The notes under the pieces were generated by a model. That model saw only the letters and a program-made list of their open reading frames with translations, was not told the origin of the DNA and ran no database searches. The position numbers and the translations under genes are program-made. DNA of 64,000 nucleotides, taken from NCBI GenBank assembly GCA_963822405.1, contig CAWGHH010000002.1, positions 266,766-330,765 on the forward strand. Reading direction: 5' to 3'. The stretch is from Candidatus Uhrbacteria bacterium (GTDB taxonomy: Bacteria > Patescibacteriota > Patescibacteriia > UBA9934). The first letter of the stretch is position 1, and every line of letters begins with the position of its first letter. Shown here in pieces: positions 1 to 29,944 of this stretch.

Positions 1-488
1 AACAACATCTTTAGGGTCGTTTGATTGTCGTCGATAACGGCAACAACGGTCTGTCCATTCTCAGCAGTAGATTGTTTCTTTATGACAACTATATCTCCGT
101 CAAAAATTCCCTCATCCACCATACTATCGCCAACTACCCGAAGAGCGAAATGTTTTTTTGGATCTGGGATACTATTTCCAACTACCGATACAGTCTCGCT
201 ATGGTCAACGATCGCTTCAATAGGCTTACCGGCAGCGATCTTGCCAATGATAGGAATCTCAATGATGGAACTAGGTAGATTTTTCGGTGTAAGACTTCTA
301 GCTAGATTGTCATCTTTCGATAAATATCCCTTTTCTATAAGCGCATGAATATGCTCATGCACAGTGGAAACGGCTTTAAGACCAAATTTGTTCCGCGTTT
401 CTTCGATAGTAGGAGAGATTCCGTTATCATTGATATACAATTTAACAAAATCAAATATTTCCTTCTGTTTCTTGGTTAGGGACGGCAT
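1..488 (-). CDS. lexA: LexA repressor, partial (C-terminus cut by window start)
   Basis: Minus-strand translation from ATG at 486-488: MPSLTKKQKEIFDFVKLYINDNGISPTIEETRNKFGLKAVSTVHEHIHALIEKGYL... (winged-HTH). S24 peptidase motifs VVGDSMVDEGIFDGDIVVI (catalytic Ser) and QTTLKML (Lys). ORF is open at the window edge, so it is absent from the M-to-stop track. Confidence 0.8.
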   Translation of the reverse strand, partial: MPSLTKKQKEIFDFVKLYINDNGISPTIEETRNKFGLKAVSTVHEHIHALIEKGYLSKDDNLARSLTPKNLPSSIIEIPIIGKIAAGKPIEAIVDHSETVSVVGNSIPDPKKHFALRVVGDSMVDEGIFDGDIVVIKKQSTAENGQTVVAVIDDNQTTLKML

Positions 489-676
489 AGTTTATTGAAA
501 ATTCTATTTCGCTGCATTTGCAGTATACCCGAAAAGAAACCGAAACTTGCAGCTTTTCCACAGACGATACAACAGAACCCTTCCGCATGATGCGTTGAGG
601 CTTTGTTGTGATGACGATGGTTTAACGAGAACCGTGATCATGGTACGATAAATTTATAACTATCCATGAAGATAAT

Positions 677-838
677 ATGGCAATCTTTACGCACAAGCGA
701 TTGTTTTGGTTTTTCCTGGTTTTGGGAATGATCGGTTTATTGGAGAATGGCAGTGTGGGGCGTGTTATTCCGACGGTTGACAGCGGTATTGTTTCAATAA
801 TTATAGCTATGCCTTTCATGTATATTTTTGGTTCGTGA
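677..838 (+). CDS. Small hydrophobic protein, 53 aa
   Basis: ATG 677 to TGA 838, below track cutoff. MAIFTHKRLFWFFLVLGMIGLLENGSVGRVIPTVDSGIVSIIIAMPFMYIFGS has two predicted TM segments. Divergent from lexA, in an AT-rich stretch. Confidence 0.3.
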   Translation: MAIFTHKRLFWFFLVLGMIGLLENGSVGRVIPTVDSGIVSIIIAMPFMYIFGS

Positions 839-954
839 CATAGCCGCCACAATTGGTGTTTTGGTGAACATCCTTTTAAGCTTCTCGATTATTTGGTTGG
901 GTATAGCTTGGTATGAGTATTACCGGATGAAAAAACAGACCAAAACTTAGTACT

Positions 955-1203
955 ATGTCCAATTTTTGGGAAATATTAAAGAAACTCTGGTATAGACTTG
1001 GAGCTCTAGCTATCGCGTCCATGATTGTGGCTGGATTTTTAACATTCGGTGGATATGGCTGTGTATCAGATGACCCGATTTATGGTCAATCTAATTGCGA
1101 GGGTTACCACGAAGGGACGCCGCTTCAATTCCTAACACGGTCATTTGGTTTCTATGTATTCGGATATTTCTCATACCTCCTGCTTAATCAAAAGGACGAA
1201 TAA
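955..1203 (+). CDS. Small membrane protein with Cys/His motif, 82 aa
   Basis: Track ORF. TM segment LGALAIASMIVAGFLTFGG, then GYGCVSDDPIYGQSNCEGYHEG. Same-strand cluster with 4-31 nt gaps. Confidence 0.4.
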   Translation: MSNFWEILKKLWYRLGALAIASMIVAGFLTFGGYGCVSDDPIYGQSNCEGYHEGTPLQFLTRSFGFYVFGYFSYLLLNQKDE

Positions 1204-1214
1204 TATATTTAGGT

Positions 1215-1856
1215 ATGGCCATTTATACACCACGAGGCTTAAAAATTAGGATCAAAACTGATCATGCGTTTGCGTTGTTGGCGAGAATATATCCCCAAAC
1301 CTCCGCATTCCAGGTATTAAAAACAACGGAAGGAATTGAACTAATTCCGGCTTTCCTCGGTGTGGTAGCTGGTATCGTTAGTTTTGTATTCGGGGCATCA
1401 AATTTAGAAATTCTATTGTTGGCAAGTGCGGTTACAGTTATTGGTTCCGCAATGAATATGTTTGGGTTTTTCATCCCCGGAATTGTTTGGCTCACGACAA
1501 TTTATAGCTACCTTTCGGGTTATGGGATTTATTTTATTTCTATTGTCATCATCGGTTTAATCACGGTTGGATGGCAAGGAACCGCCTGTTATTTTCTAGG
1601 TAGACTGATAGGAATGGGATTAAGTCTATTGGTGGGCACTATAAACATGAAGCGCGTTTACAATAAGACAGGCATTGTACTTTCACAATCCGAAATAAAT
1701 TTCTTTAACGCCTATCGCATTTACGCTCGACGACAAAAAACCAGCGAAAACCAAACACCATCCGAAGAAGAGCTACAGATGAACAATTGGAGCCCATGTT
1801 TAGAGCATCTTGTGACGAATTGGCCTCAAGTAGTAGCGCGATTTACGGATGATTAA
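1215..1856 (+). CDS. Polytopic membrane protein, 213 aa, unknown function
   Basis: Track ORF with 4-5 hydrophobic helices (GVVAGIVSFVFGASNLEILLLASAVTVIGSAMNMFGFFIPGIVWLTTIY...). 11 nt after the previous gene. Confidence 0.5.
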   Translation: MAIYTPRGLKIRIKTDHAFALLARIYPQTSAFQVLKTTEGIELIPAFLGVVAGIVSFVFGASNLEILLLASAVTVIGSAMNMFGFFIPGIVWLTTIYSYLSGYGIYFISIVIIGLITVGWQGTACYFLGRLIGMGLSLLVGTINMKRVYNKTGIVLSQSEINFFNAYRIYARRQKTSENQTPSEEELQMNNWSPCLEHLVTNWPQVVARFTDD

Positions 1857-1862
1857 TCAATT

Positions 1863-2066
1863 TTGCTTCTTACTATGCAACTAACAAAGAGACGGCGGTA
1901 CGTACTACAGGCAATTGTTGGATTTCTGATATTGATCGTGGCAAACAGAATTGACAGCTTATTCGACGGCGATAATTTTGCAGTGTCTACAGTTGTGGCA
2001 TTATTAAACATCACCGGTATCATCTGTCTATTAATGGGAATCTCAAAAGGTGTCAGCAAGCAGTAA
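1863..2066 (+). CDS. Small membrane protein, 67 aa
   Basis: Track ORF with two hydrophobic segments (LQAIVGFLILIVA; VVALLNITGIICLLMGI). 6 nt after the previous gene. Confidence 0.4.
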   Translation: MLLTMQLTKRRRYVLQAIVGFLILIVANRIDSLFDGDNFAVSTVVALLNITGIICLLMGISKGVSKQ

Positions 2067-2096
2067 TACGCTCACTTTTACTATTCATTCATTTTT

Positions 2097-2336
2097 ATGA
2101 AAATACTTCTATCCATTCTCGGCCTGGTGCTTCTCACCGGATCAGGATGTCTTGCTGAGGAGGATTATTCTGGTGGCGAAGACTTCAACGGCTATCCTTG
2201 CACAGAAGATTGTAGTGGGCACGAGGCTGGATATTCGTGGGCGGAAGATAACGACATCGACGATATCGATAACTGCGAAGGAAAGTCAGATTCATTTATT
2301 GAGGGTTGTCAATCGTACGTTGAAGAAAATTACTAA
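2097..2336 (+). CDS. Secreted or lipid-anchored acidic Cys-rich small protein, 79 aa
   Basis: Signal peptide MKILLSILGLVLLTGSGC, then a D/E-rich mature part with 5 Cys (YPCTEDCSGHEAGY...DNCEGKSDSFIEGCQSY). Strong terminator follows. Confidence 0.5.
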   Translation: MKILLSILGLVLLTGSGCLAEEDYSGGEDFNGYPCTEDCSGHEAGYSWAEDNDIDDIDNCEGKSDSFIEGCQSYVEENY

Positions 2337-2342
2337 TTAAGA

Positions 2343-2379
2343 AGAGCCCCTTCGCATACTGCGTTGGGGCTCTTTTTGG
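2343..2379 (+). terminator. Rho-independent terminator
   Basis: agagcccc...ggggctct stem followed by TTTTTGG. Confidence 0.6.
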
Positions 2380-2389
2380 TGACGTGGAC

Positions 2390-2728
2390 TCACGGGGCGT
2401 TCTCACGGACCAGACGGGCGACGACCACGGCCGCTACTCGACGACAGGCATCAATGAACCGTTGGATAGAGCGTGGGAGAACATGGTCATAGTCCTCGCG
2501 CGGCAGAATGAGAGAACGCCGCTGGGAGGTAATTCTGTCCTCGACCAGCTGAACCACGAGTTGGTTAGCGTCGTTCATACCGTAGTAGATCAGCAGAGTC
2601 TGTTCTGCGTCTTCAAGGTCACCGGTGATGTCTACAACCTTGAGCGTCACGGCTTCACCGCCGTTCGCATCCTTCATGACTTCCTCATATTCCCCTGACC
2701 CAAGTACATCGGCCAAAACTCCCTCCAC
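2390..2728 (-). CDS. Hypothetical protein, 112 aa, GC-rich
   Basis: Track ORF MEGVLADVLGSGEYEEVMKDANGGEAVTLKVVDITGDLED.... Local GC is clearly above neighbours. No family recognised. Confidence 0.3.
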   Translation of the reverse strand: MEGVLADVLGSGEYEEVMKDANGGEAVTLKVVDITGDLEDAEQTLLIYYGMNDANQLVVQLVEDRITSQRRSLILPREDYDHVLPRSIQRFIDACRRVAAVVVARLVRENAP

Positions 2729-2869
2729 ACCCCCTCTAGTTGAGAAGGCCTACAATGAGGTTACAATAGGCGGACTAACTGGGCAACCCGGTGGCTCTAA
2801 ACGAAAAAGCCCCCAGTACGGACGTATCCGTACAAGGGCCTCTTTCATAGTGATGGTAGGATACCATAC

Positions 2870-2985
2870 AGTTTTGTCATTGCGAGGGATCTCCGTAGCT
2901 TCGAGCGAAGGAGATGCCCGAAGCAACCTCACGAGATTGCTTCGACTCAAACGATTACGTTTGGTCTCGCAAAGACTGAAATACT
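2870..2985 (+). repeat. Structured interspersed repeat, copy A (cloverleaf-like, about 110 nt)
   Basis: gtcattgcgagggatctccgtagcttcgagcgaaggagatgcccgaagcaacctcacgagattgcttcgac...tggtctcgcaaagac. Near-identical to 14676-14783 except the third hairpin. Terminal inverted repeat gtcattgcgag / ctcgcaaagac. Ends 17 nt before the uvrD start. Confidence 0.6.
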
Positions 2986-3001
2986 AATCACCAGCAATTG
3001 T

Positions 3002-5932
3002 ATGTCTGATCTTCTCGAAGGCCTGAACCCAGAACAACTCGCGGCCGTGACCCATGGCGAAGGTCCGCTCATGATTATTGCGGGGGCGGGAACGGGGAAG
3101 ACAAAGGTGGTGACCACGCGCATTGCGTGGTTGATTGACCAGAAACTCGCCGAGCCGAATGACATTCTCGCGCTGACGTTTACTGACAAGGCAGCGAATG
3201 AAATGGAGGAACGAGTCGACCGTCTTTTGCCGATGGGTTATCTCGATCTCAACATTTCCACCTTTCACTCTTTTTGCGAAAAGGTTTTGCGTGAACATGG
3301 AATTCATATTGGTATTCCGTCGGACTTCAAGTTGTATACCGAGGTTGATTGTTGGTTGCTCATGCGTCGCAACCTTGATAGATTCGAGCTCGACTATTTC
3401 AAACCGCGTGGTTCGCCAACAAAATTCTTGCGACAACTACTTTCTCATTTTTCGAAGTGTAAGGACGAGGGTATCTCCCCCGAGAAATATTCTATTGCAG
3501 TTGAAGAACTCGCAAAGGTTTTGTCGAAGGGTCCAGCAATGCTCGACGAGGACAAGCTCGAAATACAAAAATGGCAGGAACTATCCGGCGCTTACGCCAT
3601 GTACGAGACACTCTTATCCGAACAGCACGCTATCGATTTCGGCGGCTTGCTTCTATTAGCGCTTGAGTTATTCAGAACTCGACCAAATGTCCTAGCGGAA
3701 TATCTCGCGCGATTCAAGTACGTTATTGTCGACGAGTTTCAAGACACAAACAGCATTCAATATGCGCTCGTCAAATTGTTAACTGGTCCAAAGCGCAATG
3801 TTACGGTCGTGGGCGACGACGATCAAGCAATCTACAAGTTTCGTGGCGCCGCCCTCGCCAATATTTTAGAGTTTAGAACTGACTACCCGGATACAGCGCG
3901 TGTTGTGCTTACCAGAAACTATAGAAGTGGCGCGACAATTCTCGACGCTGCACATAAACTTATTCAGACGAATAATCCTCATCGTTTAGAAGCGAGCGAA
4001 GGTTTATCAAAAAAACTACAATCGCAAATTGAACATGCAGGTCTCGTCCATCACCTTCACTGCGCAACAGCTGTCGAGGAAGTCGAATCCGTCATCAACG
4101 AAATTATTGCTAAGCACGAAAACGGGGAAGGGGACTGGAACGATTTTGTAATTCTCGCACGCTCGAATGATGCAGCTGATCCGTTTCTCGAAGCCCTTGA
4201 GCGAGTTGGCGTTCCGTATCACTTCGTGGCCATGTCTGGTTTGTACACGAAACCGATTATCCTAGACTCGATGGCTTACATGCGCGTAGTGTACGAGCCG
4301 TATAACTCGCCAGCGATGTATCGAATCCTGAGTCATCCTCGTCTCGGCCTCACCGAGTCCGATCTTTCAGCGTTAATGCAATATGTGCGCAAGAAAAATG
4401 GCGCAGCAATTATTGACGGCATGCGTTCGCTCGGTCAGGAAGCTGGAGTGTCACTCGATGGGTCAACTCGACTAAACGAGATTGTTCGAATTATCGAAAA
4501 CCTACGGGACAAAGCAAAGCGTTTGCCAGTCACCGAGCTGTTCGTTTCGGTTCTCAAAGATACCGGTCTACTCGGCGACATGCGAATCATGCCTGAAGCT
4601 GATCAGCAGGAAGTATTCCGACACCTAGAAGGTTTCCTGGCTCGCCTGAAGCGCTACGTTGTCGCCAGTCCGGACAATAAGCTGTTACCCGGCTTCTTAG
4701 AGGAGTTCGACGCTGAACGCGAGGCAGGGGAGGCTGGTGGTTTGAAGGCTGACACCGAGGAGGGGCCCGATGTCGTCAATGTCATGACTATTCACGCCGC
4801 GAAGGGCCTCGAGTTCAAATATGTGTTTGTGGTGAACATGATCGAGCAACGTTTCCCCTCAGTTTCGCGCTCCGACCAACTTCCTCTCCCCCCAACGCTC
4901 GTCCGCAAAGTCGATGCCGCTCTGGACGATCACGTCGCCGAGGAACGTCGTCTGTTCTATGTGGCCATGACTCGCGCTAAGCAGGGTTTGTATTTATGTT
5001 CGGCGGAAGATTACGGCGGTACTCGTAAGCGAAAACCGTCGAGGTTCCTCGCCGAGTTAGGTTACGAAGTGCAACCGACCGAAAAGAAAAAGAAAATGAG
5101 CACGGACGATATTCTCGATGAACGAGGCAAGATTGTAACCAGTTCCGGCGAGGCCGATATCAAATTGCCGACAAAATTCTCTTTCTCTCAAGTCGCCGCT
5201 TTCGGTTCATGTCCTCTCCAGTACAAGTACGCTCATATTCTCAAAATCCCGACGTTTGGCCGTCATCAGTTCAGCTTCGGCCAAAGCATGCACTTAACCC
5301 TTGAAAAGTTCGTCAAAGAAATGCTCCCCGCAGAATCAACAACCCTTTCTAGCCCTTTATTGCCCTTTCGAACCTTTCCTTCACTCCGTCAGCTTCTCGA
5401 TATGTACGCTGCATCATTCATCGACGAATGGTACCCAGATTCGAAGACTCGTGAACAGTATCGTCAGCAGGGCGTCGATTCTCTCACAGAGTTCCATCGT
5501 AAAGTGGTCGAGAATCAACCTAAGCCGATTATCCTTGAGGCCGGCTTCACTCTAAAGATCGGCGACATCTTGATGAAAGGACGTATCGACAGAATCGACG
5601 CGGTCGAAGGTGGCGTTGAGATTATCGACTACAAGACCGGCCGGTTCAAAGAAAAGCTGGATTGGGATGACCGTCGCCAGCTGATCTTGTACGCTCTGGC
5701 CGCTGAGCAATGTTTCAATCCGCCCCTCGTCGTCAAAGCGCTAACGTACTATTATGTTGAGACAAACGAAACGATGAGTTTTGCCCCAACTGACAAGGAC
5801 AAGGAAAAACTACTAGACGAGATCAAAGAAACCGTCGGCGCAATTAGAACGAGTACGTTCGAGCCGAAACCGGGACCATTTACTTGTAAGTATTGTGACT
5901 TTAAGGACATTTGCCCGTTTTCGCAACAATAA
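3002..5932 (+). CDS. UvrD/PcrA-family helicase fused to a C-terminal PD-(D/E)XK (RecB/Cas4/AddB-like) Fe-S nuclease domain
   Basis: 976 aa. Walker A AGAGTGKT, VDEFQDTN, VGDDDQAIYKFRGA and TRNYRSG helicase motifs. C-terminal nuclease core DRIDAVEGGVEIIDYKTG plus Cys cluster GSCPLQY...CKYCDFKDICPF. Confidence 0.85.
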   Translation: MSDLLEGLNPEQLAAVTHGEGPLMIIAGAGTGKTKVVTTRIAWLIDQKLAEPNDILALTFTDKAANEMEERVDRLLPMGYLDLNISTFHSFCEKVLREHGIHIGIPSDFKLYTEVDCWLLMRRNLDRFELDYFKPRGSPTKFLRQLLSHFSKCKDEGISPEKYSIAVEELAKVLSKGPAMLDEDKLEIQKWQELSGAYAMYETLLSEQHAIDFGGLLLLALELFRTRPNVLAEYLARFKYVIVDEFQDTNSIQYALVKLLTGPKRNVTVVGDDDQAIYKFRGAALANILEFRTDYPDTARVVLTRNYRSGATILDAAHKLIQTNNPHRLEASEGLSKKLQSQIEHAGLVHHLHCATAVEEVESVINEIIAKHENGEGDWNDFVILARSNDAADPFLEALERVGVPYHFVAMSGLYTKPIILDSMAYMRVVYEPYNSPAMYRILSHPRLGLTESDLSALMQYVRKKNGAAIIDGMRSLGQEAGVSLDGSTRLNEIVRIIENLRDKAKRLPVTELFVSVLKDTGLLGDMRIMPEADQQEVFRHLEGFLARLKRYVVASPDNKLLPGFLEEFDAEREAGEAGGLKADTEEGPDVVNVMTIHAAKGLEFKYVFVVNMIEQRFPSVSRSDQLPLPPTLVRKVDAALDDHVAEERRLFYVAMTRAKQGLYLCSAEDYGGTRKRKPSRFLAELGYEVQPTEKKKKMSTDDILDERGKIVTSSGEADIKLPTKFSFSQVAAFGSCPLQYKYAHILKIPTFGRHQFSFGQSMHLTLEKFVKEMLPAESTTLSSPLLPFRTFPSLRQLLDMYAASFIDEWYPDSKTREQYRQQGVDSLTEFHRKVVENQPKPIILEAGFTLKIGDILMKGRIDRIDAVEGGVEIIDYKTGRFKEKLDWDDRRQLILYALAAEQCFNPPLVVKALTYYYVETNETMSFAPTDKDKEKLLDEIKETVGAIRTSTFEPKPGPFTCKYCDFKDICPFSQQ

Positions 5933-6649: not shown

Positions 6650-6705
6650 CCACAGGCCTTCTTGTTCAGGATGCTAGGCCATGGTGAAATGCGAACGACC
6701 GAACT

Positions 6706-7746
6706 ATGTTTAGTCGAATTTTTGGGCGGTTTTCAAAGGATATTGCGATTGACCTGGGAACGTCTAATACCAGGGTTTTTGTGCGTGAGCGCGGCATCGT
6801 CATGCACGAGCCGTCGATTGTGGCGGTTAATACTCGAACAAATCACATTTTGGCGGTTGGGACATCGGCCAAAGACATGCTCGGCAAGACGCCACCGCAC
6901 ATTGTGACCACTCGACCACTTACAAAGGGTGTTATTTCGGACTTCGAGGTAACAGAAAAAATGTTGAAATATTTCGTCGACAAGGTTCACGAAGATACTT
7001 TTACTTTAGTACCTCGACCACGCATGGTGATGACCGTGCCACTTGAAATTACCGAAGTAGAACGCAAGGCGGTAGAAGATGCTGCTCTTTCGGCTGGCGC
7101 ACGTGAAGCATTTCTAGTCGAGGCACCACTCGCGGCCGCTATTGGTGCCGGCTTACCGGTCGAGGATTCCGTTGGCAGCATGATTGTGGACATTGGCGGG
7201 GGGACGACTGAAATCGCTGTTGTCGCGCTTGGCGGTATTGTCACATGGAAATCGCTAACGGTTGCTGGCGACGAGATGACGAAGAGTGTCACTCAATACG
7301 CCCGTGATGTTTTCAATTTATTAATTGGTGAACGAGTGGCGGAAGAAATTAAGTGGCGAATCGGCACAACGATGGATCTTGGTACGCCGATGGAAATGGA
7401 AATGCGTGGACGATATTTGATTAATGGATTGCCACGGCAAGTGATGGTCACCGACGCGCAAATTCGTGAGGCAATCTATCGCAATGTACAGATGATTGTT
7501 GAAAACATTAAAGCGACTATTGAGGTTACGCCTCCAGAAATTGTCGCCGATATTTATGAACGAGGCATCGTGCTTGCTGGTGGTGGGGCACTATTAAAAG
7601 GCATCGACAAAACCATCGCTAGAGAAACCGACATCCCAGTTCGGATTGCTGATGATCCATTGACTTGCACTGTTCGAGGTGCCGGCGCATTGCTTGATAG
7701 ACCTGAATTCTTGAAAGATATTTCTCTGCCCACTGCTAATAACTAG
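6706..7746 (+). CDS. mreB: Rod shape-determining protein MreB
   Basis: 346 aa. Actin-fold motifs IDLGTSNTRV, VDIGGGTTEIAV, LAGGGALLKGIDK. Confidence 0.95.
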   Translation: MFSRIFGRFSKDIAIDLGTSNTRVFVRERGIVMHEPSIVAVNTRTNHILAVGTSAKDMLGKTPPHIVTTRPLTKGVISDFEVTEKMLKYFVDKVHEDTFTLVPRPRMVMTVPLEITEVERKAVEDAALSAGAREAFLVEAPLAAAIGAGLPVEDSVGSMIVDIGGGTTEIAVVALGGIVTWKSLTVAGDEMTKSVTQYARDVFNLLIGERVAEEIKWRIGTTMDLGTPMEMEMRGRYLINGLPRQVMVTDAQIREAIYRNVQMIVENIKATIEVTPPEIVADIYERGIVLAGGGALLKGIDKTIARETDIPVRIADDPLTCTVRGAGALLDRPEFLKDISLPTANN

Positions 7747-11511: not shown

Positions 11512-13002
11512 ATGACCCGCGAAGAACAAGACCGGCTTACTCGGTTACAGTCTCTTGCGACGAATAACGTGAACGCCTATCCGGATAACGCCGGACGAAC
11601 ACACTTAGTGGCTGACGCTCTAGCATCTTTCGAGTCACTCGAAAAATCCGAAGAGACCATTGTGGTCTGTGGTCGAGCCATGGCCATTCGGGATATCGGC
11701 GCGCTGTCATTTCTCAAATTACAGGACGACTCTGGCGTGATGCAGGTGGTTCTTCGTAAGGCTGACCTTGAGGCTGACTACAGTTTCTTTTTGTCACATG
11801 CTGACGTTGGTGACATTCTTGAAGCTAAGGGTCGGGCGTATGTGACGAAGACGGGCGAAAAGTCCGTCTTGGTAACTTCGATCAGAATTTTGTCCAAAGC
11901 TCTAAAACCGTTGCCAGAAAAGTGGCACGGTTTGTCTGACGTTGAAACCCGCTACCGCGAACGCGAGCTTGATCTAATCGTAAACCCGGCGGTTCGGGAA
12001 CGTTTCCGTATCCGCTCAAAGATCGTCTCTGGAATGCGCGCTTTCTTAGATACTAGAGGATTCCTGGAGGTTGAAACACCAATGTTGCAACCTATTCCTG
12101 GTGGCGCAAATGCTCGTCCGTTCGTTACGCATCACAACGCGCTCGGGGCAGATTTATTTCTACGCATCGCTCCTGAGCTCTACTTGAAGCGTTTGGTGGT
12201 TGGTGGCTTCGAAAAGATTTACGAAATCGGTCGTTGTTTCCGTAATGAAGGAATTGATTACTCGCACAATCCAGAATTCACCATGCTTGAGCTCTATTGG
12301 GCTTATGTCAATAAGGACGCATTCATTTCGTTCATGGAAGAATTGCTGGTGACAGTGATTGCCGAAAGTCTCGGCACATTAAAAGTCACGACGAGTGAAG
12401 AAGGAAGATCGATTGATTTCACTGGTCCGTGGCCACGTAAAACTTTTCGCGAAGCAATCTTGGAAGCTTGCGGAATTGATATTGACGAACTAGCTACGGT
12501 TGCCGATGTAAAGGCTGCAGTCAAAGCGAAGAAAGTTAAAGTAGATTTCGCAAAGTGCGTTGGCCTCGGTGAACACTTGGACGAGCTCTGGAAGAAAACT
12601 GCTCGACCAAAGATTACGAATCCAGTTTGGATTTTTGACTACCCGGTCGATCTCAAGCCACTCGCAAAAACTCATCCAGTCGACAAAACAAAAAGCTCAA
12701 CTGTTCAATTAGTAATTGAAGGCGCCGAAGTTATTAACGCGTATTATCACGAGCTTAATGATCCGATTGACCAACGTGCTCGGTTCGTCGCTCAGGAAAC
12801 TTTGCGTGAGCAGGGAAGTGAGGAGGCTCAACACTTGGACGAGGCATTCCTGTCGGCCCTTGAACACGCCATGCCACCAACGAGTGGTTTTGGCATCGGT
12901 ATTGATCGATTCATCGCTTTCTTGACCGGTGTGCCAAACTTAAAAGAAGTTATTCTGTTCCCAACTCTTAAACCGGACACCGGACAACGGAAACCGGAAT
13001 AA
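11512..13002 (+). CDS. lysS: Lysine--tRNA ligase (class II)
   Basis: OB-fold N-terminus. Class II motifs FLEVETPML, FRNEGIDYSHNPEFTMLELYWAY, GFGIGIDR. The track ORF begins at TTG 11500; ATG 11512 is preferred. Confidence 0.95.
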   Translation: MTREEQDRLTRLQSLATNNVNAYPDNAGRTHLVADALASFESLEKSEETIVVCGRAMAIRDIGALSFLKLQDDSGVMQVVLRKADLEADYSFFLSHADVGDILEAKGRAYVTKTGEKSVLVTSIRILSKALKPLPEKWHGLSDVETRYRERELDLIVNPAVRERFRIRSKIVSGMRAFLDTRGFLEVETPMLQPIPGGANARPFVTHHNALGADLFLRIAPELYLKRLVVGGFEKIYEIGRCFRNEGIDYSHNPEFTMLELYWAYVNKDAFISFMEELLVTVIAESLGTLKVTTSEEGRSIDFTGPWPRKTFREAILEACGIDIDELATVADVKAAVKAKKVKVDFAKCVGLGEHLDELWKKTARPKITNPVWIFDYPVDLKPLAKTHPVDKTKSSTVQLVIEGAEVINAYYHELNDPIDQRARFVAQETLREQGSEEAQHLDEAFLSALEHAMPPTSGFGIGIDRFIAFLTGVPNLKEVILFPTLKPDTGQRKPE

Positions 13003-27309: not shown

Positions 27310-28548
27310 ATGTCTGCTATGCCAAAACTTCTTTCGGTTATCGAAGCTTCACTCCGGATCGGCGTCTCCTCTGACACTATTCGTCGCTGGGACAAAAAAG
27401 GATTAATCAAAGCCCAACGCTCCCCGCTTAATCATCGTCTATTCGATTTCGATGAAATCATGCGTTTGCATAACAAAATATCAGGCACAAGTAGTGGAAA
27501 CAACTACAAAGTACTTAGAACAAACAAGAAATCGGGATATACGGCTATTGAACTATTCGCCGGAGCAGGCGGAACTGCCCTAGGATTCGACAACGCTGGG
27601 ATCGACCATACTCTCCTCACCGATTGGGACAAAGACTCGACCGACACGTTAAAATTCAACAAACCAAATTGGAACGTTGTTCGTGATGACGTGCGAAACA
27701 TCGACTTTTCAAAAAAAGACGCAGATATAGTAGAAGGCGGCTTCCCTTGTCAATCCTTCAGCTTCGCCGGCAAGAAACTCGGCTTCAGCGATATACGAGG
27801 AACAATGTTTTTCGAATTCGCACGTTGCCTTAAAGAAGTCCAACCAAAAATTGCCATGGGTGAAAATGTTCGTGGCCTCCTCGCGCACGAAGACGGACGA
27901 ACCCTCAAAACGATCATCGGCATCATGAAGGACTTAGGCTATAACGTCGCTTACAAAATTCTCCGCGCTCAATATCTCGATGTTCCGCAAAAACGCGAGC
28001 GCCTCATCATTATCGGCATTCGCAAGGATCTCGATCTCCCGATTCTCTTCCCGCGAGAAAGAGATTACACAATCTCAATGAAGGAAGCGTTGGCCGAATG
28101 TCCACTTTCAGACGGACAATCATATCCAGATAAAAAACGAGCGGTCATGGAATTGATACCAGCGGGTGGGTATTGGAAAGACTTGCCAGTACCGATGCAA
28201 AAAAAATACATGGGAGCTAGCTATTACATGGGCGGTGGAAAAACCGGCATGGCTCGTCGCCTCTCTTGGGATGAACCGAGCCTCACGCTTACCTGCGCGC
28301 CAGCACAAAAACAAACCGAGCGTTGTCATCCGAGCGAGACTCGACCCCTCACGGTTCGCGAGTACGCCCGTATTCAAACCTTTCCCGATTCTTGGGACTT
28401 CTCAGGCTCGACCACATCCCAATATAAGCAGATAGGAAATGCTGTCCCCGTAAACCTCGGATTCCATATCGGCACATGTCTAAAAGCATCCCTCAATGGC
28501 AATGCCGACGAGAAAACCATGGAACTTGCTGAACCAATCGAAAACTAA
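27310..28548 (+). CDS. DNA (cytosine-5)-methyltransferase with N-terminal MerR-type HTH domain
   Basis: 412 aa. N-terminal LLSVIEASLRIGVSSDTIRRWDKKGLIKAQR (MerR-like HTH). m5C motifs I ELFAGAGG, IV GFPCQSFSFAGK, VI ENVRGL, VIII QRRERLIIIG. Confidence 0.9.
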   Translation: MSAMPKLLSVIEASLRIGVSSDTIRRWDKKGLIKAQRSPLNHRLFDFDEIMRLHNKISGTSSGNNYKVLRTNKKSGYTAIELFAGAGGTALGFDNAGIDHTLLTDWDKDSTDTLKFNKPNWNVVRDDVRNIDFSKKDADIVEGGFPCQSFSFAGKKLGFSDIRGTMFFEFARCLKEVQPKIAMGENVRGLLAHEDGRTLKTIIGIMKDLGYNVAYKILRAQYLDVPQKRERLIIIGIRKDLDLPILFPRERDYTISMKEALAECPLSDGQSYPDKKRAVMELIPAGGYWKDLPVPMQKKYMGASYYMGGGKTGMARRLSWDEPSLTLTCAPAQKQTERCHPSETRPLTVREYARIQTFPDSWDFSGSTTSQYKQIGNAVPVNLGFHIGTCLKASLNGNADEKTMELAEPIEN

Positions 28549-28560
28549 TCAACACAAAAA

Positions 28561-28587
28561 CACGAGCCACTTAGACTCGTGTTTTAT
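28561..28587. terminator. Bidirectional hairpin terminator
   Basis: aaaaacacgag-ccacttaga-ctcgtgtttt, with T-runs on both strands, between the MTase (+) and the Cas2-like gene (-). Confidence 0.55.
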
Positions 28588-28685
28588 GTTACTAACATCC
28601 AATGTATATTTCATTTCTCATTGGTTTCGCATGGCTCAAACACGGTCTACGAATGTATGCCACGACCAACCAGAAGAAATTATTG

Positions 28686-28958
28686 CTATGTATTTCGCAA
28701 CCAGTTAACAACAGCTTCCGGCATTCTATATCCTGCCCAATCAGATGAAACTTCTGTCACGAATATTCGATCGTTAGAGTCTACAGCCGCAATCAAACGA
28801 TTAATAATCGCCACAGAAGAGTCGTCAGTTCTAATCAACCACAAAGATTCCATTGGCTTAGCCCAAAATCTATAACTTTTTATCAACTCAAACAACCTAG
28901 CGTAATCGAGACTTGTTTCTGGTCGAATCAAGTCGTAAGTAATTAAATATACTTTCAT
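28686..28958 (-). CDS. Small Cas2-like (ferredoxin-fold) protein, 90 aa
   Basis: MKVYLITYDLIRPETSLDYARLFELIKSYRFWAKPMESLWLIRTDDSSVAIINRLIAAVDSNDRIFVTEV. Beta1 hhLITYDh, ESLWLI and DSNDRIFV follow the Cas2 pattern (hhLVTYDV...NSVFEC...DSLRIY). Inferred from pattern only. Starts 2 nt after the PIN gene stop. Confidence 0.35.
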   Translation of the reverse strand: MKVYLITYDLIRPETSLDYARLFELIKSYRFWAKPMESLWLIRTDDSSVAIINRLIAAVDSNDRIFVTEVSSDWAGYRMPEAVVNWLRNT

Positions 28959-28960
28959 AA

Positions 28961-29944
28961 CTATGGATTTACTTCCTGCGCATCTTCATTTCGCATAGAT
29001 GAACTGGCGGAATGAGGCGTCTGTATATTCTCGGTCTCCTTTATCGCGGAACTCCCCGACGAAAGATCGGCGTCATTCTGCGAATCTTCGTTGGTAACAA
29101 TAGTGTCCGAATCTCGTCCCAACACCTTTATTTCTTCGATGGTGCCCTGACTTATGCTAGCACCGTTCTTCCCGGCCTCCACAAGAAAGCTTTCGAGCGT
29201 ATACATCACAAAATTCACATTTGCCTCCTTTTTGATTTCGCGTTTCAACTCAATTCGAGGACCAATCTTATAACCACCCAAACCAATTTCCCACCAATCA
29301 TCCTTACTATCATTTGTCACAAAGATAATTGGCTTATTAATACCCTTAGCGTACTCCATCATCTGTTTCCAACCAAGAAAATCACCTGGTCGTTTATCTC
29401 GAAATCCTGGTGGGGTCTGAATGCTCATGCGATACTTTCCCTCTTTCTTCTTGTCTTCCAGCTGTTCCGTACTATATGGACTCCCGACACGACCTTCAAA
29501 TAATACATCAAATTCAGTTCTAATGGGGTCGGCAATGTACCAATCGATTTCTTTCTCGGCCTCTTCTAATTCTTTAGTGGCGGAATCTAAAGCGGCCTTT
29601 AATTTCGTCAAAATACGATCTTGTTTTTCTGATGGAAGTCGCAACCGTTCGTTCTCAATATGTCGAACACTTTCGTGAATCCATCCCCATAGCTCTCTTC
29701 TTCTCACAAGTTGTTCTGTAATCACTTTTTGACGATTCTGTTGATACTCGAGTGCGAACTGATGAGGAATCCAAATTGATTCCTTACGATCAGAAAGAAA
29801 TTTAATGAACTCAGTTTTTGCTGTTAACGAATATCGATACACTTCCAATAAAATATTGGCATCAAAAACAAAGACTCCTTCAGACCACCATGACTTGAGA
29901 TCCGTCTCTGATATCGGATAATGGTCAGGAAAGATATCCTTCAT
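28961..29944 (-). CDS. PIN-like domain nuclease (DUF4935-like) with acidic disordered C-terminal tail
   Basis: 327 aa. PIN acidic motifs VFVFDANILLEVYRY, HQFALEYQQN, KPIIFVTNDSKDDWWE. C-terminal 60 aa is S/D/E-rich and low-complexity. Confidence 0.6.
   Translation of the reverse strand: MKDIFPDHYPISETDLKSWWSEGVFVFDANILLEVYRYSLTAKTEFIKFLSDRKESIWIPHQFALEYQQNRQKVITEQLVRRRELWGWIHESVRHIENERLRLPSEKQDRILTKLKAALDSATKELEEAEKEIDWYIADPIRTEFDVLFEGRVGSPYSTEQLEDKKKEGKYRMSIQTPPGFRDKRPGDFLGWKQMMEYAKGINKPIIFVTNDSKDDWWEIGLGGYKIGPRIELKREIKKEANVNFVMYTLESFLVEAGKNGASISQGTIEEIKVLGRDSDTIVTNEDSQNDADLSSGSSAIKETENIQTPHSASSSMRNEDAQEVNP

Follow-up and report, generated by a model that had tools for sequence, protein, structure and literature searches.

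Prophage lysogeny modules carry 'morons' that act at the cell envelope, such as lambda RexB and the exclusion lipoproteins of the Ltp and Sie types. The SOS colicin and bacteriocin operons of Enterobacteria place a small exported product and small membrane proteins near a LexA operator, and DNA methyltransferases of the M.SsoII and M.EcoRII types carry an N-terminal helix-turn-helix (HTH) and autoregulate their restriction-modification (R-M) system. Integron gene cassettes, including those of sedentary chromosomal integrons, consist of a promoterless single open reading frame (ORF) and an attC site, and many of them have been reported to encode anti-phage systems (bioRxiv 10.1101/2024.07.02.601686). 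Here we describe a cluster of small ORFs, which we call the islet, that lies divergent from a lexA gene near the left end of a 64-kb stretch of contig CAWGHH010000002.1 (the whole stretch is referred to as the window). An original prediction had taken these ORFs for an accessory cassette of the bacteriocin or small-toxin and immunity kind, possibly under SOS control. From our comparisons, we hold it probable that the islet is an accessory, strain-specific and horizontally acquired block that adjoins a LexA-type repressor module on its variable side. The two conserved genes of the islet come from families that pass from phylum to phylum.

The islet resembles prophage morons in that a predicted four-helix membrane protein and a small lipoprotein-like protein stand beside an S24-type repressor; on one viral contig, a homologue of the 213-residue islet protein lies between a CI-like repressor (HTH and S24 domains) and a tyrosine integrase, and proteins with the domain of the 79-residue islet protein adjoin repressor-like genes on viral contigs. 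However, the islet proteins have no similarity in sequence or fold to RexB, Ltp or any solved structure, and the window shows no phage structural or integrase gene. With the colicin operons the islet shares a small exported product and small membrane proteins near a LexA operator, but here the operator is part of the lexA promoter, with none found at the islet, and the exported product is acidic and lipoprotein-like, with no lysis or immunity homologues detected. Relatives of the adjacent lexA gene recall the M.SsoII and M.EcoRII types, in that a methyltransferase is fused to a DNA-binding module and a repeat lies in its own promoter, but the fused module is a complete LexA (winged HTH and self-cleaving S24 domain), and its methyltransferase partners come from at least three unrelated classes. 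Finally, relatives of the 213-residue gene are textbook integron cassettes, each standing as a single ORF between a 5' G|TTRRRY boundary and an attC immediately behind the stop codon, in arrays that also hold toxin-antitoxin (TA) and R-M cassettes. The copy in the window differs from these in having no attC, cassette boundary or array, and in being packed 6-11 nucleotides from its neighbours within a terminator-bounded unit; the host is probably a Patescibacterium, and no attC occurs in the 35 related loci examined.

Extent and conservation of the islet

Base composition sets the cluster apart from most of the window, as had been pointed out: its GC content is 0.407 over positions 677-2336, compared with a mean of 0.481 (standard deviation 0.026, minimum 0.419) for the 34 large ORFs of the window. 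To the right of about 2380 the GC content climbs to 0.52-0.56, and the remaining window is ordinary chromosome (mreBC, PBP2, aminoacyl-tRNA synthetases, murJ and others). The neighbours on the left share the AT-richness, with a GC content of 0.403 for the lexA fragment and 0.388 for the spacer, so that the AT-rich tract continues past the left edge of the window. The left boundary of the islet was instead located by blastn: positions 6-563 of the window match the closest relative, locus L012 (loci of the comparison sets are given L numbers), with 77% identity, and because this match ends at base 563 we define 564-2380 as the lineage-specific segment. Scanning with the LexA fragment and keeping one genome per species, we collected 54 lexA loci. 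No relative of any islet ORF, or of the convergent 112-residue gene to its right, is encoded in any of them, and tblastx found no islet remnants there, which agrees with the accessory and strain-specific character originally proposed. An identical 2,094-bp Logan contig from a separate sequencing run spans positions 844-2937, and the arrangement is therefore not an assembly artefact. The confidence expressed above, that the account is probable, applies to this structural and evolutionary description of the islet.

Within the islet the five same-strand ORFs originally listed (53, 82, 213, 67 and 79 codons) all exist, and the features are collected in Table 1. Their short spacing was described correctly except between the 53- and 82-codon ORFs, which are 116 nucleotides apart; only when an additional TTG-start ORF of 40 codons is counted do the spacers come to 4-30 nucleotides throughout.

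The islet is bracketed by the longest direct repeat of the region, an imperfect repeat of 34 nucleotides able to form a hairpin. Two copies are present in the 64 kb, with 0.01 expected. We considered whether it is a dispersed element of the repetitive extragenic palindromic (REP) kind, and the presence of only two copies in 64 kb ruled this out. The right copy is part of the strong terminator that had been noted at the end of the cluster, where a GC-rich stem-loop (-29.3 kcal/mol, z -6.6, with none of 200 shuffled sequences as stable) is followed by UUUUU on the plus strand, the arrangement of a Rho-independent terminator. The element sits between the convergent 79- and 112-residue genes, and since it also folds well on the minus strand (-21.7 kcal/mol, z -5.6), it would serve the 112-residue gene as well. 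This convergent gene (2390-2728, minus strand) encodes an acidic protein, has an unusually high GC content of 0.563 and matches no family. At the other end, a candidate weak promoter for the islet can be picked out by eye at 621-649 (TTTAAC, 17 nucleotides, TGgTACGAT). A search of the whole window against Rfam gave no match.

Table 1. Features of the lexA-islet region, in window coordinates
Feature	Position	Strand	Basis
LexA-type gene, 5' part (residues 1-162), winged HTH and S24 autoprotease, runs off window edge	1-488	-	Pfam
Palindrome CTGCATTTGCAG in lexA 5' leader	512-523		present; weak hairpin, z -1.5
lexA -10 element TATACT (lexA strand)	522-527	-	aligns with TATAAT directly after LexA box in ~20 related loci
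LexA operator, direct repeat TTCGGTTTCTTTTCGG (TTCGG-N6-TTCGG)	529-544	-	exact in 17/31 lexA upstream regions
DnaA-box-like TTTTCCACA, last conserved element of lexA module	554-562	+	one mismatch to TTATCCACA
Accessory islet as a whole	564-2380	+	blastn edge at 563; GC rise after ~2380; no islet ORF in 54 lexA loci
Left copy of 34-nucleotide imperfect direct repeat (family D1), hairpin-forming	574-607	+	76% identical to 2343-2376; -15.4 kcal/mol, z -3.5
53-residue hydrophobic ORF, coding unsupported	677-838	+	ORF list
40-residue TTG-start hydrophobic ORF, missing from original prediction, coding unsupported	828-950	+	ORF list
82-residue protein, two hydrophobic segments, loop with partial copy of 79-residue protein's domain	955-1203	+	hydropathy, motif test
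213-residue membrane protein, unannotated mobile family	1215-1856	+	family HMM, 166 homologues, AlphaFold2
67-residue hydrophobic ORF (alternative ATG 1875), coding unsupported	1863-2066	+	ORF list
79-residue lipoprotein-like secreted protein, conserved four-Cys acidic domain	2097-2336	+	242 homologues, family HMM
Bidirectional intrinsic terminator, includes right repeat copy 2343-2376	2339-2381	both	folding; T-runs on both sides

Protein families of the islet and their mobility

The 213-residue protein belongs to a family of 166 homologues, nearly all of exactly 214 residues and 40-51% identical, from hosts as different as Acidobacteria, Poribacteria, Smithellaceae, Chloroflexi and Niastella. 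It matches the family hidden Markov model (HMM) over positions 1-214 with an E value of 4.6e-91 and has all 23 of the columns that are invariant in the family, which include the extreme N-terminus; the signature of the family comprises an N-terminal MAIYTPRGLK and a C-terminal SE.NF.NAYR...W...P..V.RF. An AlphaFold2 model of high confidence (predicted local distance difference test, pLDDT, 93; predicted template modelling score, pTM, 0.87) begins with a short strand and two helices, has a hydrophobic core of helices at residues 44-152 and ends in a helical C-terminal part; no fold match was found in the PDB. Read together with the hydropathy profile, the core would correspond to four membrane helices, with the conserved N- and C-terminal segments predicted to be cytoplasmic.

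The 79-residue product belongs to a second family. In agreement with its original description, it has a hydrophobic N-terminus, ending in LTGSGC, five cysteines and a strongly acidic composition (19 Asp and Glu, 2 Lys and Arg). The family contains at least 242 proteins, with 50-86% identity over about 50 residues, and the window protein matches the family HMM with an E value of 1.2e-35. The conserved domain reads F.GY.CTEDCSGHEAGY.WAE.N.I.D.DDC.GNS.SFIEGC.SY.EE, with four conserved cysteines, and the window protein carries 14 of the 14 invariant columns of the family, C39, G41, H42, C60 and C71 among them. The homologues have canonical lipoboxes or signal peptides, and their domain is strongly acidic. 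Set against the lipobox pattern [LVI][ASTVI][GAS]C, and against ten aligned homologues whose lipoboxes are canonical (such as LLGAGC, MLAGC and LFLAGC), the LLTGSG|C of the window protein is atypical, with a Gly at -3. In the model the domain is well defined (pLDDT above 90 for residues 30-79) and consists of a beta-hairpin and two helices, for which the PDB holds no match. Many homologues carry a second, degenerate half-domain; in two-module lipoproteins of 125-139 residues (L008:8001-8408, L009:8001-8396 and others), the full domain comes after a degenerate version of its own second half, GYEWAE.NDIDNFDDCQ.EFG...EDGCN.YV.

The domain also occurs, annotated as 'hypothetical protein', on megaplasmids of Rhizobium, Cupriavidus and Methylobacter, and on 22 viral contigs, where it is often the C-terminal part of a secreted protein beside a repressor-like HTH gene. 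In one Patescibacteria metagenome-assembled genome (MAG) it adjoins an integrative element, followed by several small membrane proteins. The family is found without the other islet genes in unrelated contexts, and the 213- and 79-residue families do not co-occur elsewhere.

The 82-residue protein appears to be linked to the 79-residue protein through a shared motif, a relationship that the original prediction had recognised as a common Cys/His motif. Between its two hydrophobic segments lies a loop, FGGYGCVSD-(8 residues)-CEGYHEG, that resembles part of the four-Cys domain. In a six-frame translation of the window, the patterns F.GY.C..D and C.G.{0,1}HE.{0,1}G are found jointly in these two products and in no others, and the pair occurs 0 times in 2.3 million residues of unrelated loci. 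Pairwise BLASTP similarity between the two proteins is weak (E 0.007), the HMM of the 79-residue family does not detect the 82-residue protein, and HMMER, run exhaustively with the 82-residue protein over 1.84 billion representatives, returned only itself and a spurious repeat protein. We nevertheless regard the shared motif as genuine and, on its strength, take the 82-codon ORF to be a gene that is functionally tied to the 79-codon gene.

For the ORFs of 53, 40 and 67 codons we obtained no significant match in Pfam, NCBIfam, PADLOC or PHROGs. A homologue search with the 67-codon ORF was empty, the 53-codon ORF and the ATG-start form of the 67-codon ORF are absent from the public protein collection, and the latter ORF is not called on the Logan contig, which contains it whole. 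The 53-residue product was also considered as a decayed paralogue of the 213-residue protein, given that both begin MAI[FY]T, but the family HMM rejects it. The plus strand has a strong excess of T (AT skew -0.24 at 601-900), and these three ORFs may be real small membrane proteins or may be by-products of T-rich DNA. Of the five proteins originally proposed, those of 82, 213 and 79 residues are thus supported as genes, and those of 53 and 67 residues are left without such evidence.

One may go further and propose that the islet is mostly non-functional, that only the 213- and 79-codon genes are real, and that everything else is T-rich by-product or decayed; this account overlaps with our own. 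It is consistent with the orphan status of the three ORFs, with the T excess, and with the failure of gene callers to report the 67-codon ORF, the only one of the three that lies wholly on the Logan contig. However, the same-strand packing is tight, with a sole long gap at 838-955, and the 82-codon ORF, an orphan too, carries a specific motif common to the 79-residue family, so that orphan status is not proof of a non-coding sequence. The lack of Shine-Dalgarno sequences in the islet is likewise uninformative, since none are recognisable before the start codons of the core genes of this genome. We consider a mostly non-functional islet rather unlikely.

The mobility of the 213-residue family is seen in its genomic contexts. 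We found 97 further loci of the family in metagenomes, kept 80 of them, and examined 87 loci for context. Where the same gene occurs in differing contexts, only about 21 nucleotides upstream and 64 nucleotides downstream are common. On the upstream side the boundary is marked by a G|TTRRRY core site (GTTCGCT, GTTAGAT or GTTAAAC, 15-30 nucleotides before the ATG), the complementary RYYYAAC follows the stop codon, and in at least 24 of the 87 loci a canonical attC hairpin comes directly after the gene. From 15 sites we built an attC covariance model (R1), in which 10 of 13 predicted stem pairs show compensatory changes; it finds 35 sites in the family loci, some outside the training set, all co-oriented with the gene. 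An 8.8-kb metagenome contig (L091:1-8779) holds at least 12 co-oriented attC sites in a dense array with a PIN/antitoxin pair and a 213-residue homologue. From the core sites and the attC that follows the gene in these relatives, we conclude that the 213-residue family is a typical integron gene cassette.

The neighbours of the family include defence and TA genes. In Niastella the homologue is accompanied by Cap15/mCpol, an integrase and a zeta toxin, in an Acidobacterium by HicB and PIN modules, and in Smithellaceae by a type III R-M cassette. In the closest relatives (50-51% identity) the gene immediately upstream encodes an XRE-type HTH protein. A conserved partner gene was not found in the 87 loci, and we found no member of the family on plasmids. 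In the Smithellaceae locus (L003:6652-12254), attC sites at 6652-6708 and 12194-12254 flank the complete type III R-M pair (N6_N4 methylase and ResIII, about 5.5 kb), which is thus a very large integron cassette in its own right, adjoining the 213-residue homologue. In an Acidobacteria MAG (L006:5311-7435), the homologue, a HicB-like gene and a PIN gene lie between the carboxyltransferase and biotin carboxylase genes, with a 48-residue Biotin_carb_N fragment alongside, suggesting an insertion in which the beginning of the gene was duplicated.

Given these relatives, the islet itself might be a fossil cassette array, similar to clusters of attC sites lacking integron integrases (CALIN), in which cassettes were captured singly, their attC sites eroded, and the flanking hairpins are what remains of them. 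In keeping with what is usual among cassettes, the ORFs are small, lie on one strand and are for the most part orphans; they are enclosed by a hairpin repeat, and a member of a typical cassette family lies in their midst. The window copy of the 213-codon gene nevertheless lacks every cassette hallmark that we looked for. A heuristic scan found no attC, and the covariance model run with filters off gave a best score of 11.4 bits (E 1.8) window-wide and nothing in 1-3000. The stop codon is only 6 nucleotides from the next ORF, and spacers of 4-30 nucleotides are too short for attC sites; in place of a G|TTRRRY boundary the sequence reads ...GACGAATAATATATTTAGGT-ATG. There is no integron integrase or attI within the window and no attC in the 35 Patescibacteria loci, and the flanking hairpins, at 34 nucleotides, are without AAC...GTT ends, the right one being a plain terminator. 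A fossil array is therefore an improbable origin.

The lexA promoter and LexA-methyltransferase fusions

The lexA gene is cut by the window edge, and the part present has the domains, cleavage site and catalytic residues of a canonical LexA. Its translation matches LexA_DNA_bind (59.5 bits) and Peptidase_S24 (70.2 bits) in Pfam. Aligned with E. coli LexA, to which it has 35% identity, it places its Ala-Gly cleavage site (A86-G87) and its catalytic residues S122 and K159 opposite A84-G85, S119 and K156. The best matches are to Patescibacteria, with 85% identity to a 'Patescibacteria group bacterium' and 69% to a Nomurabacteria MAG.

Aligning the 130-150 nucleotides upstream of lexA from 31 Patescibacteria loci (L012-L042), we observed a direct repeat, TTCGG-N6-TTCGG, that is exact in 17 of the 31 and holds a constant place and orientation, compared with 0.0002 occurrences per sequence after shuffling. 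In the alignment it is placed between a TTGAC-like -35 and the TATAAT -10 of the lexA promoters; in a few loci, L025 and L029 among them, the box is inverted and lies downstream of the -10. By this placement, the copy at 529-544 occupies the standard autoregulatory position of a lexA promoter. It is the sole exact copy in the 64-kb window, and neither the rest of 489-700 nor the region upstream of the uvrD-like gene to the right contains a second box with up to two mismatches. The original statement that the intergenic region has no canonical Cheo box or E. coli SOS box is correct for these two types; the box present is a lineage-specific LexA box.

The other intergenic elements that had been reported, namely CTGCATTTGCAG, two copies of TTGCAG, and GAAAAG and CTTTTC arms, are all present. 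The GAAAAG arm belongs to the LexA box and the CTTTTC arm to the DnaA-box-like TTTTCCACA. The palindrome was weighed as an operator and is probably not one: it reads CCGCATCTCAAT in L012, and its hairpin is weak. As to the DnaA box, the exact consensus TTATCCACA occurs within 200 nucleotides upstream of lexA in 17 of the 31 loci (L014, L018-L022, L024, L028, L030-L033, L035, L038-L040 and L042), with shuffled sequences giving a mean of 0.09 loci and a background of 0.018 per 200 nucleotides.

The suggestion of SOS control finds no support at the islet, because the box lies within the promoter of lexA itself, 133 nucleotides and the left hairpin away from the first islet ATG; an operator overlapping the promoter of the regulated gene, as in members of a LexA regulon, is not seen there. 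The idea of an SOS-induced bacteriocin or small toxin with immunity proteins, which LexA would keep repressed through the intergenic region between islet and lexA in the manner of colicin operons, could point to a small secreted Cys-rich product and several small membrane proteins divergent from lexA, to a genuine LexA operator between them, and to L012, where a divergent vsr gene starts about 45 nucleotides from the box so that divergent co-regulation is possible in the lineage, but it is very improbable here, given the position of the sole box between the -35 and -10 of lexA, the lack of any match to a bacteriocin, leader, processing, transporter or immunity family in Pfam, NCBIfam, PADLOC or PHROGs, the acidic, lipobox-bearing and widespread nature of the 79-residue family, which occurs without the other islet genes, and the fact that the 213-residue family is never found alongside it elsewhere.

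The relatives of the lexA gene have a further property. In about 24 of the 31 Patescibacteria loci the LexA frame runs on for 439-888 residues, and Pfam searches identify LexA_DNA_bind and Peptidase_S24 fused in frame to a C5, an N6_N4 or an Eco57I/N6_Mtase/TaqI_C methylase (among L012-L040, for example L012:8001-9578, L013:6339-7916, L028:7039-8394 and L032:8001-10667). The frame extends beyond LexA in all ten of the best-matching loci (L012-L018 and L020-L022; 53-85% identity); nine of these either reach 519-624 residues or run off the contig into the methyltransferase, and L016 ends early, at 356 residues. The stand-alone forms of about 200 residues (L019, L030 and L031) are more distant, with 47-54% identity, and fused and stand-alone genes alike carry the TTCGG-N6-TTCGG box. 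Judged by these relatives, the lexA of the window is very probably the front end of a LexA-methyltransferase fusion. In L012 a Bsp6I-type restriction endonuclease gene lies convergent downstream and vsr lies upstream. In general the neighbours of the lexA relatives are unconserved and of mobile or defence type, such as Vsr, large serine recombinases, a ParB-methyltransferase and a Cas4-like nuclease. If the window gene is indeed such a fusion, the AT-rich tract would be an R-M island and the islet its variable flank. We found no LexA relatives on viral contigs, and a literature search returned no published description of LexA-methyltransferase fusions.

Elsewhere in the window, a second patch of low GC content (0.42-0.43) at 27310-29944 contains another fusion of a regulator to a methyltransferase, a MerR-type HTH joined to a C5 DNA methylase (27310-28548, plus strand), and a PIN_8 protein (28961-29944, minus strand). 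The uvrD-like gene to the right of the islet (3002-5932, plus strand) encodes a UvrD/PcrA-type helicase of 976 residues fused to a C-terminal PD-(D/E)XK (Cas4-like) nuclease.

A possible role in inter-genomic conflict

We propose that the islet would be read rightward as one transcript, starting at a weak promoter that lies beyond the left hairpin. Its products would comprise a four-helix membrane protein (213 residues), an extracytoplasmic, lipoprotein-like protein (79 residues) and a membrane protein displaying a partial copy of the same domain (82 residues), and they would act at the envelope in conflict between genomes, in phage exclusion or defence and not as a bacteriocin. A role in conflict is suggested by analogy, since the families are found in integron arrays, in defence and TA neighbourhoods and in prophage lysogeny modules, and we put forward defence or phage exclusion as a tentative function only. 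An extended form of this proposal, which we regard as doubtful when taken as a whole, would make the islet the cargo arm of an R-M island in which the methyltransferase has a complete, self-cleaving LexA as its fusion partner. The 213-residue protein would then be a new, widely mobile, single-gene membrane factor of phage exclusion or defence whose fold has no counterpart in the PDB. The 82- and 79-residue proteins would pair up in a surface module based on a new four-Cys domain, and the fusion would wire the R-M system, and possibly the islet, to a DNA-damage signal.

Several observations weigh against this proposal and the description of the islet on which it builds. The association of the 213-residue family with defence is anecdotal, in that its 149 neighbours fall into 91 Pfam families, none of which occurs more than three times. 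No islet ORF has a significant match in Pfam, NCBIfam, PADLOC or PHROGs, nor do the products have one in the PDB, and three of the six ORFs may be non-coding. The lexA gene is as AT-rich as the islet, and the compositional island may thus be larger, with other bounds. There is no attC, integrase or transposase within the window. A promoter scan reports nothing at 621-649, where the match to consensus, found by eye, is weak. Lastly, the lexA of the window is cut at residue 162, so that its fusion to a methyltransferase is read from its relatives only.

We stress that small accessory islets of uncharacterised envelope proteins are an ordinary kind of object, and that the interest of this one lies mainly in its two protein families and in the LexA-methyltransferase fusions to which it is adjacent. 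The 79-residue protein represents a large unnamed family with an extracytoplasmic four-Cys domain, and the 213-residue family offers a concrete candidate to anyone screening cassette-borne defence genes for function. With the TTCGG-N6-TTCGG operator, obtained from comparison alone, the SOS regulons of Patescibacteria become predictable. The LexA-methyltransferase fusions, if they are indeed undescribed, suggest a direct link between DNA damage and the control of restriction-modification.

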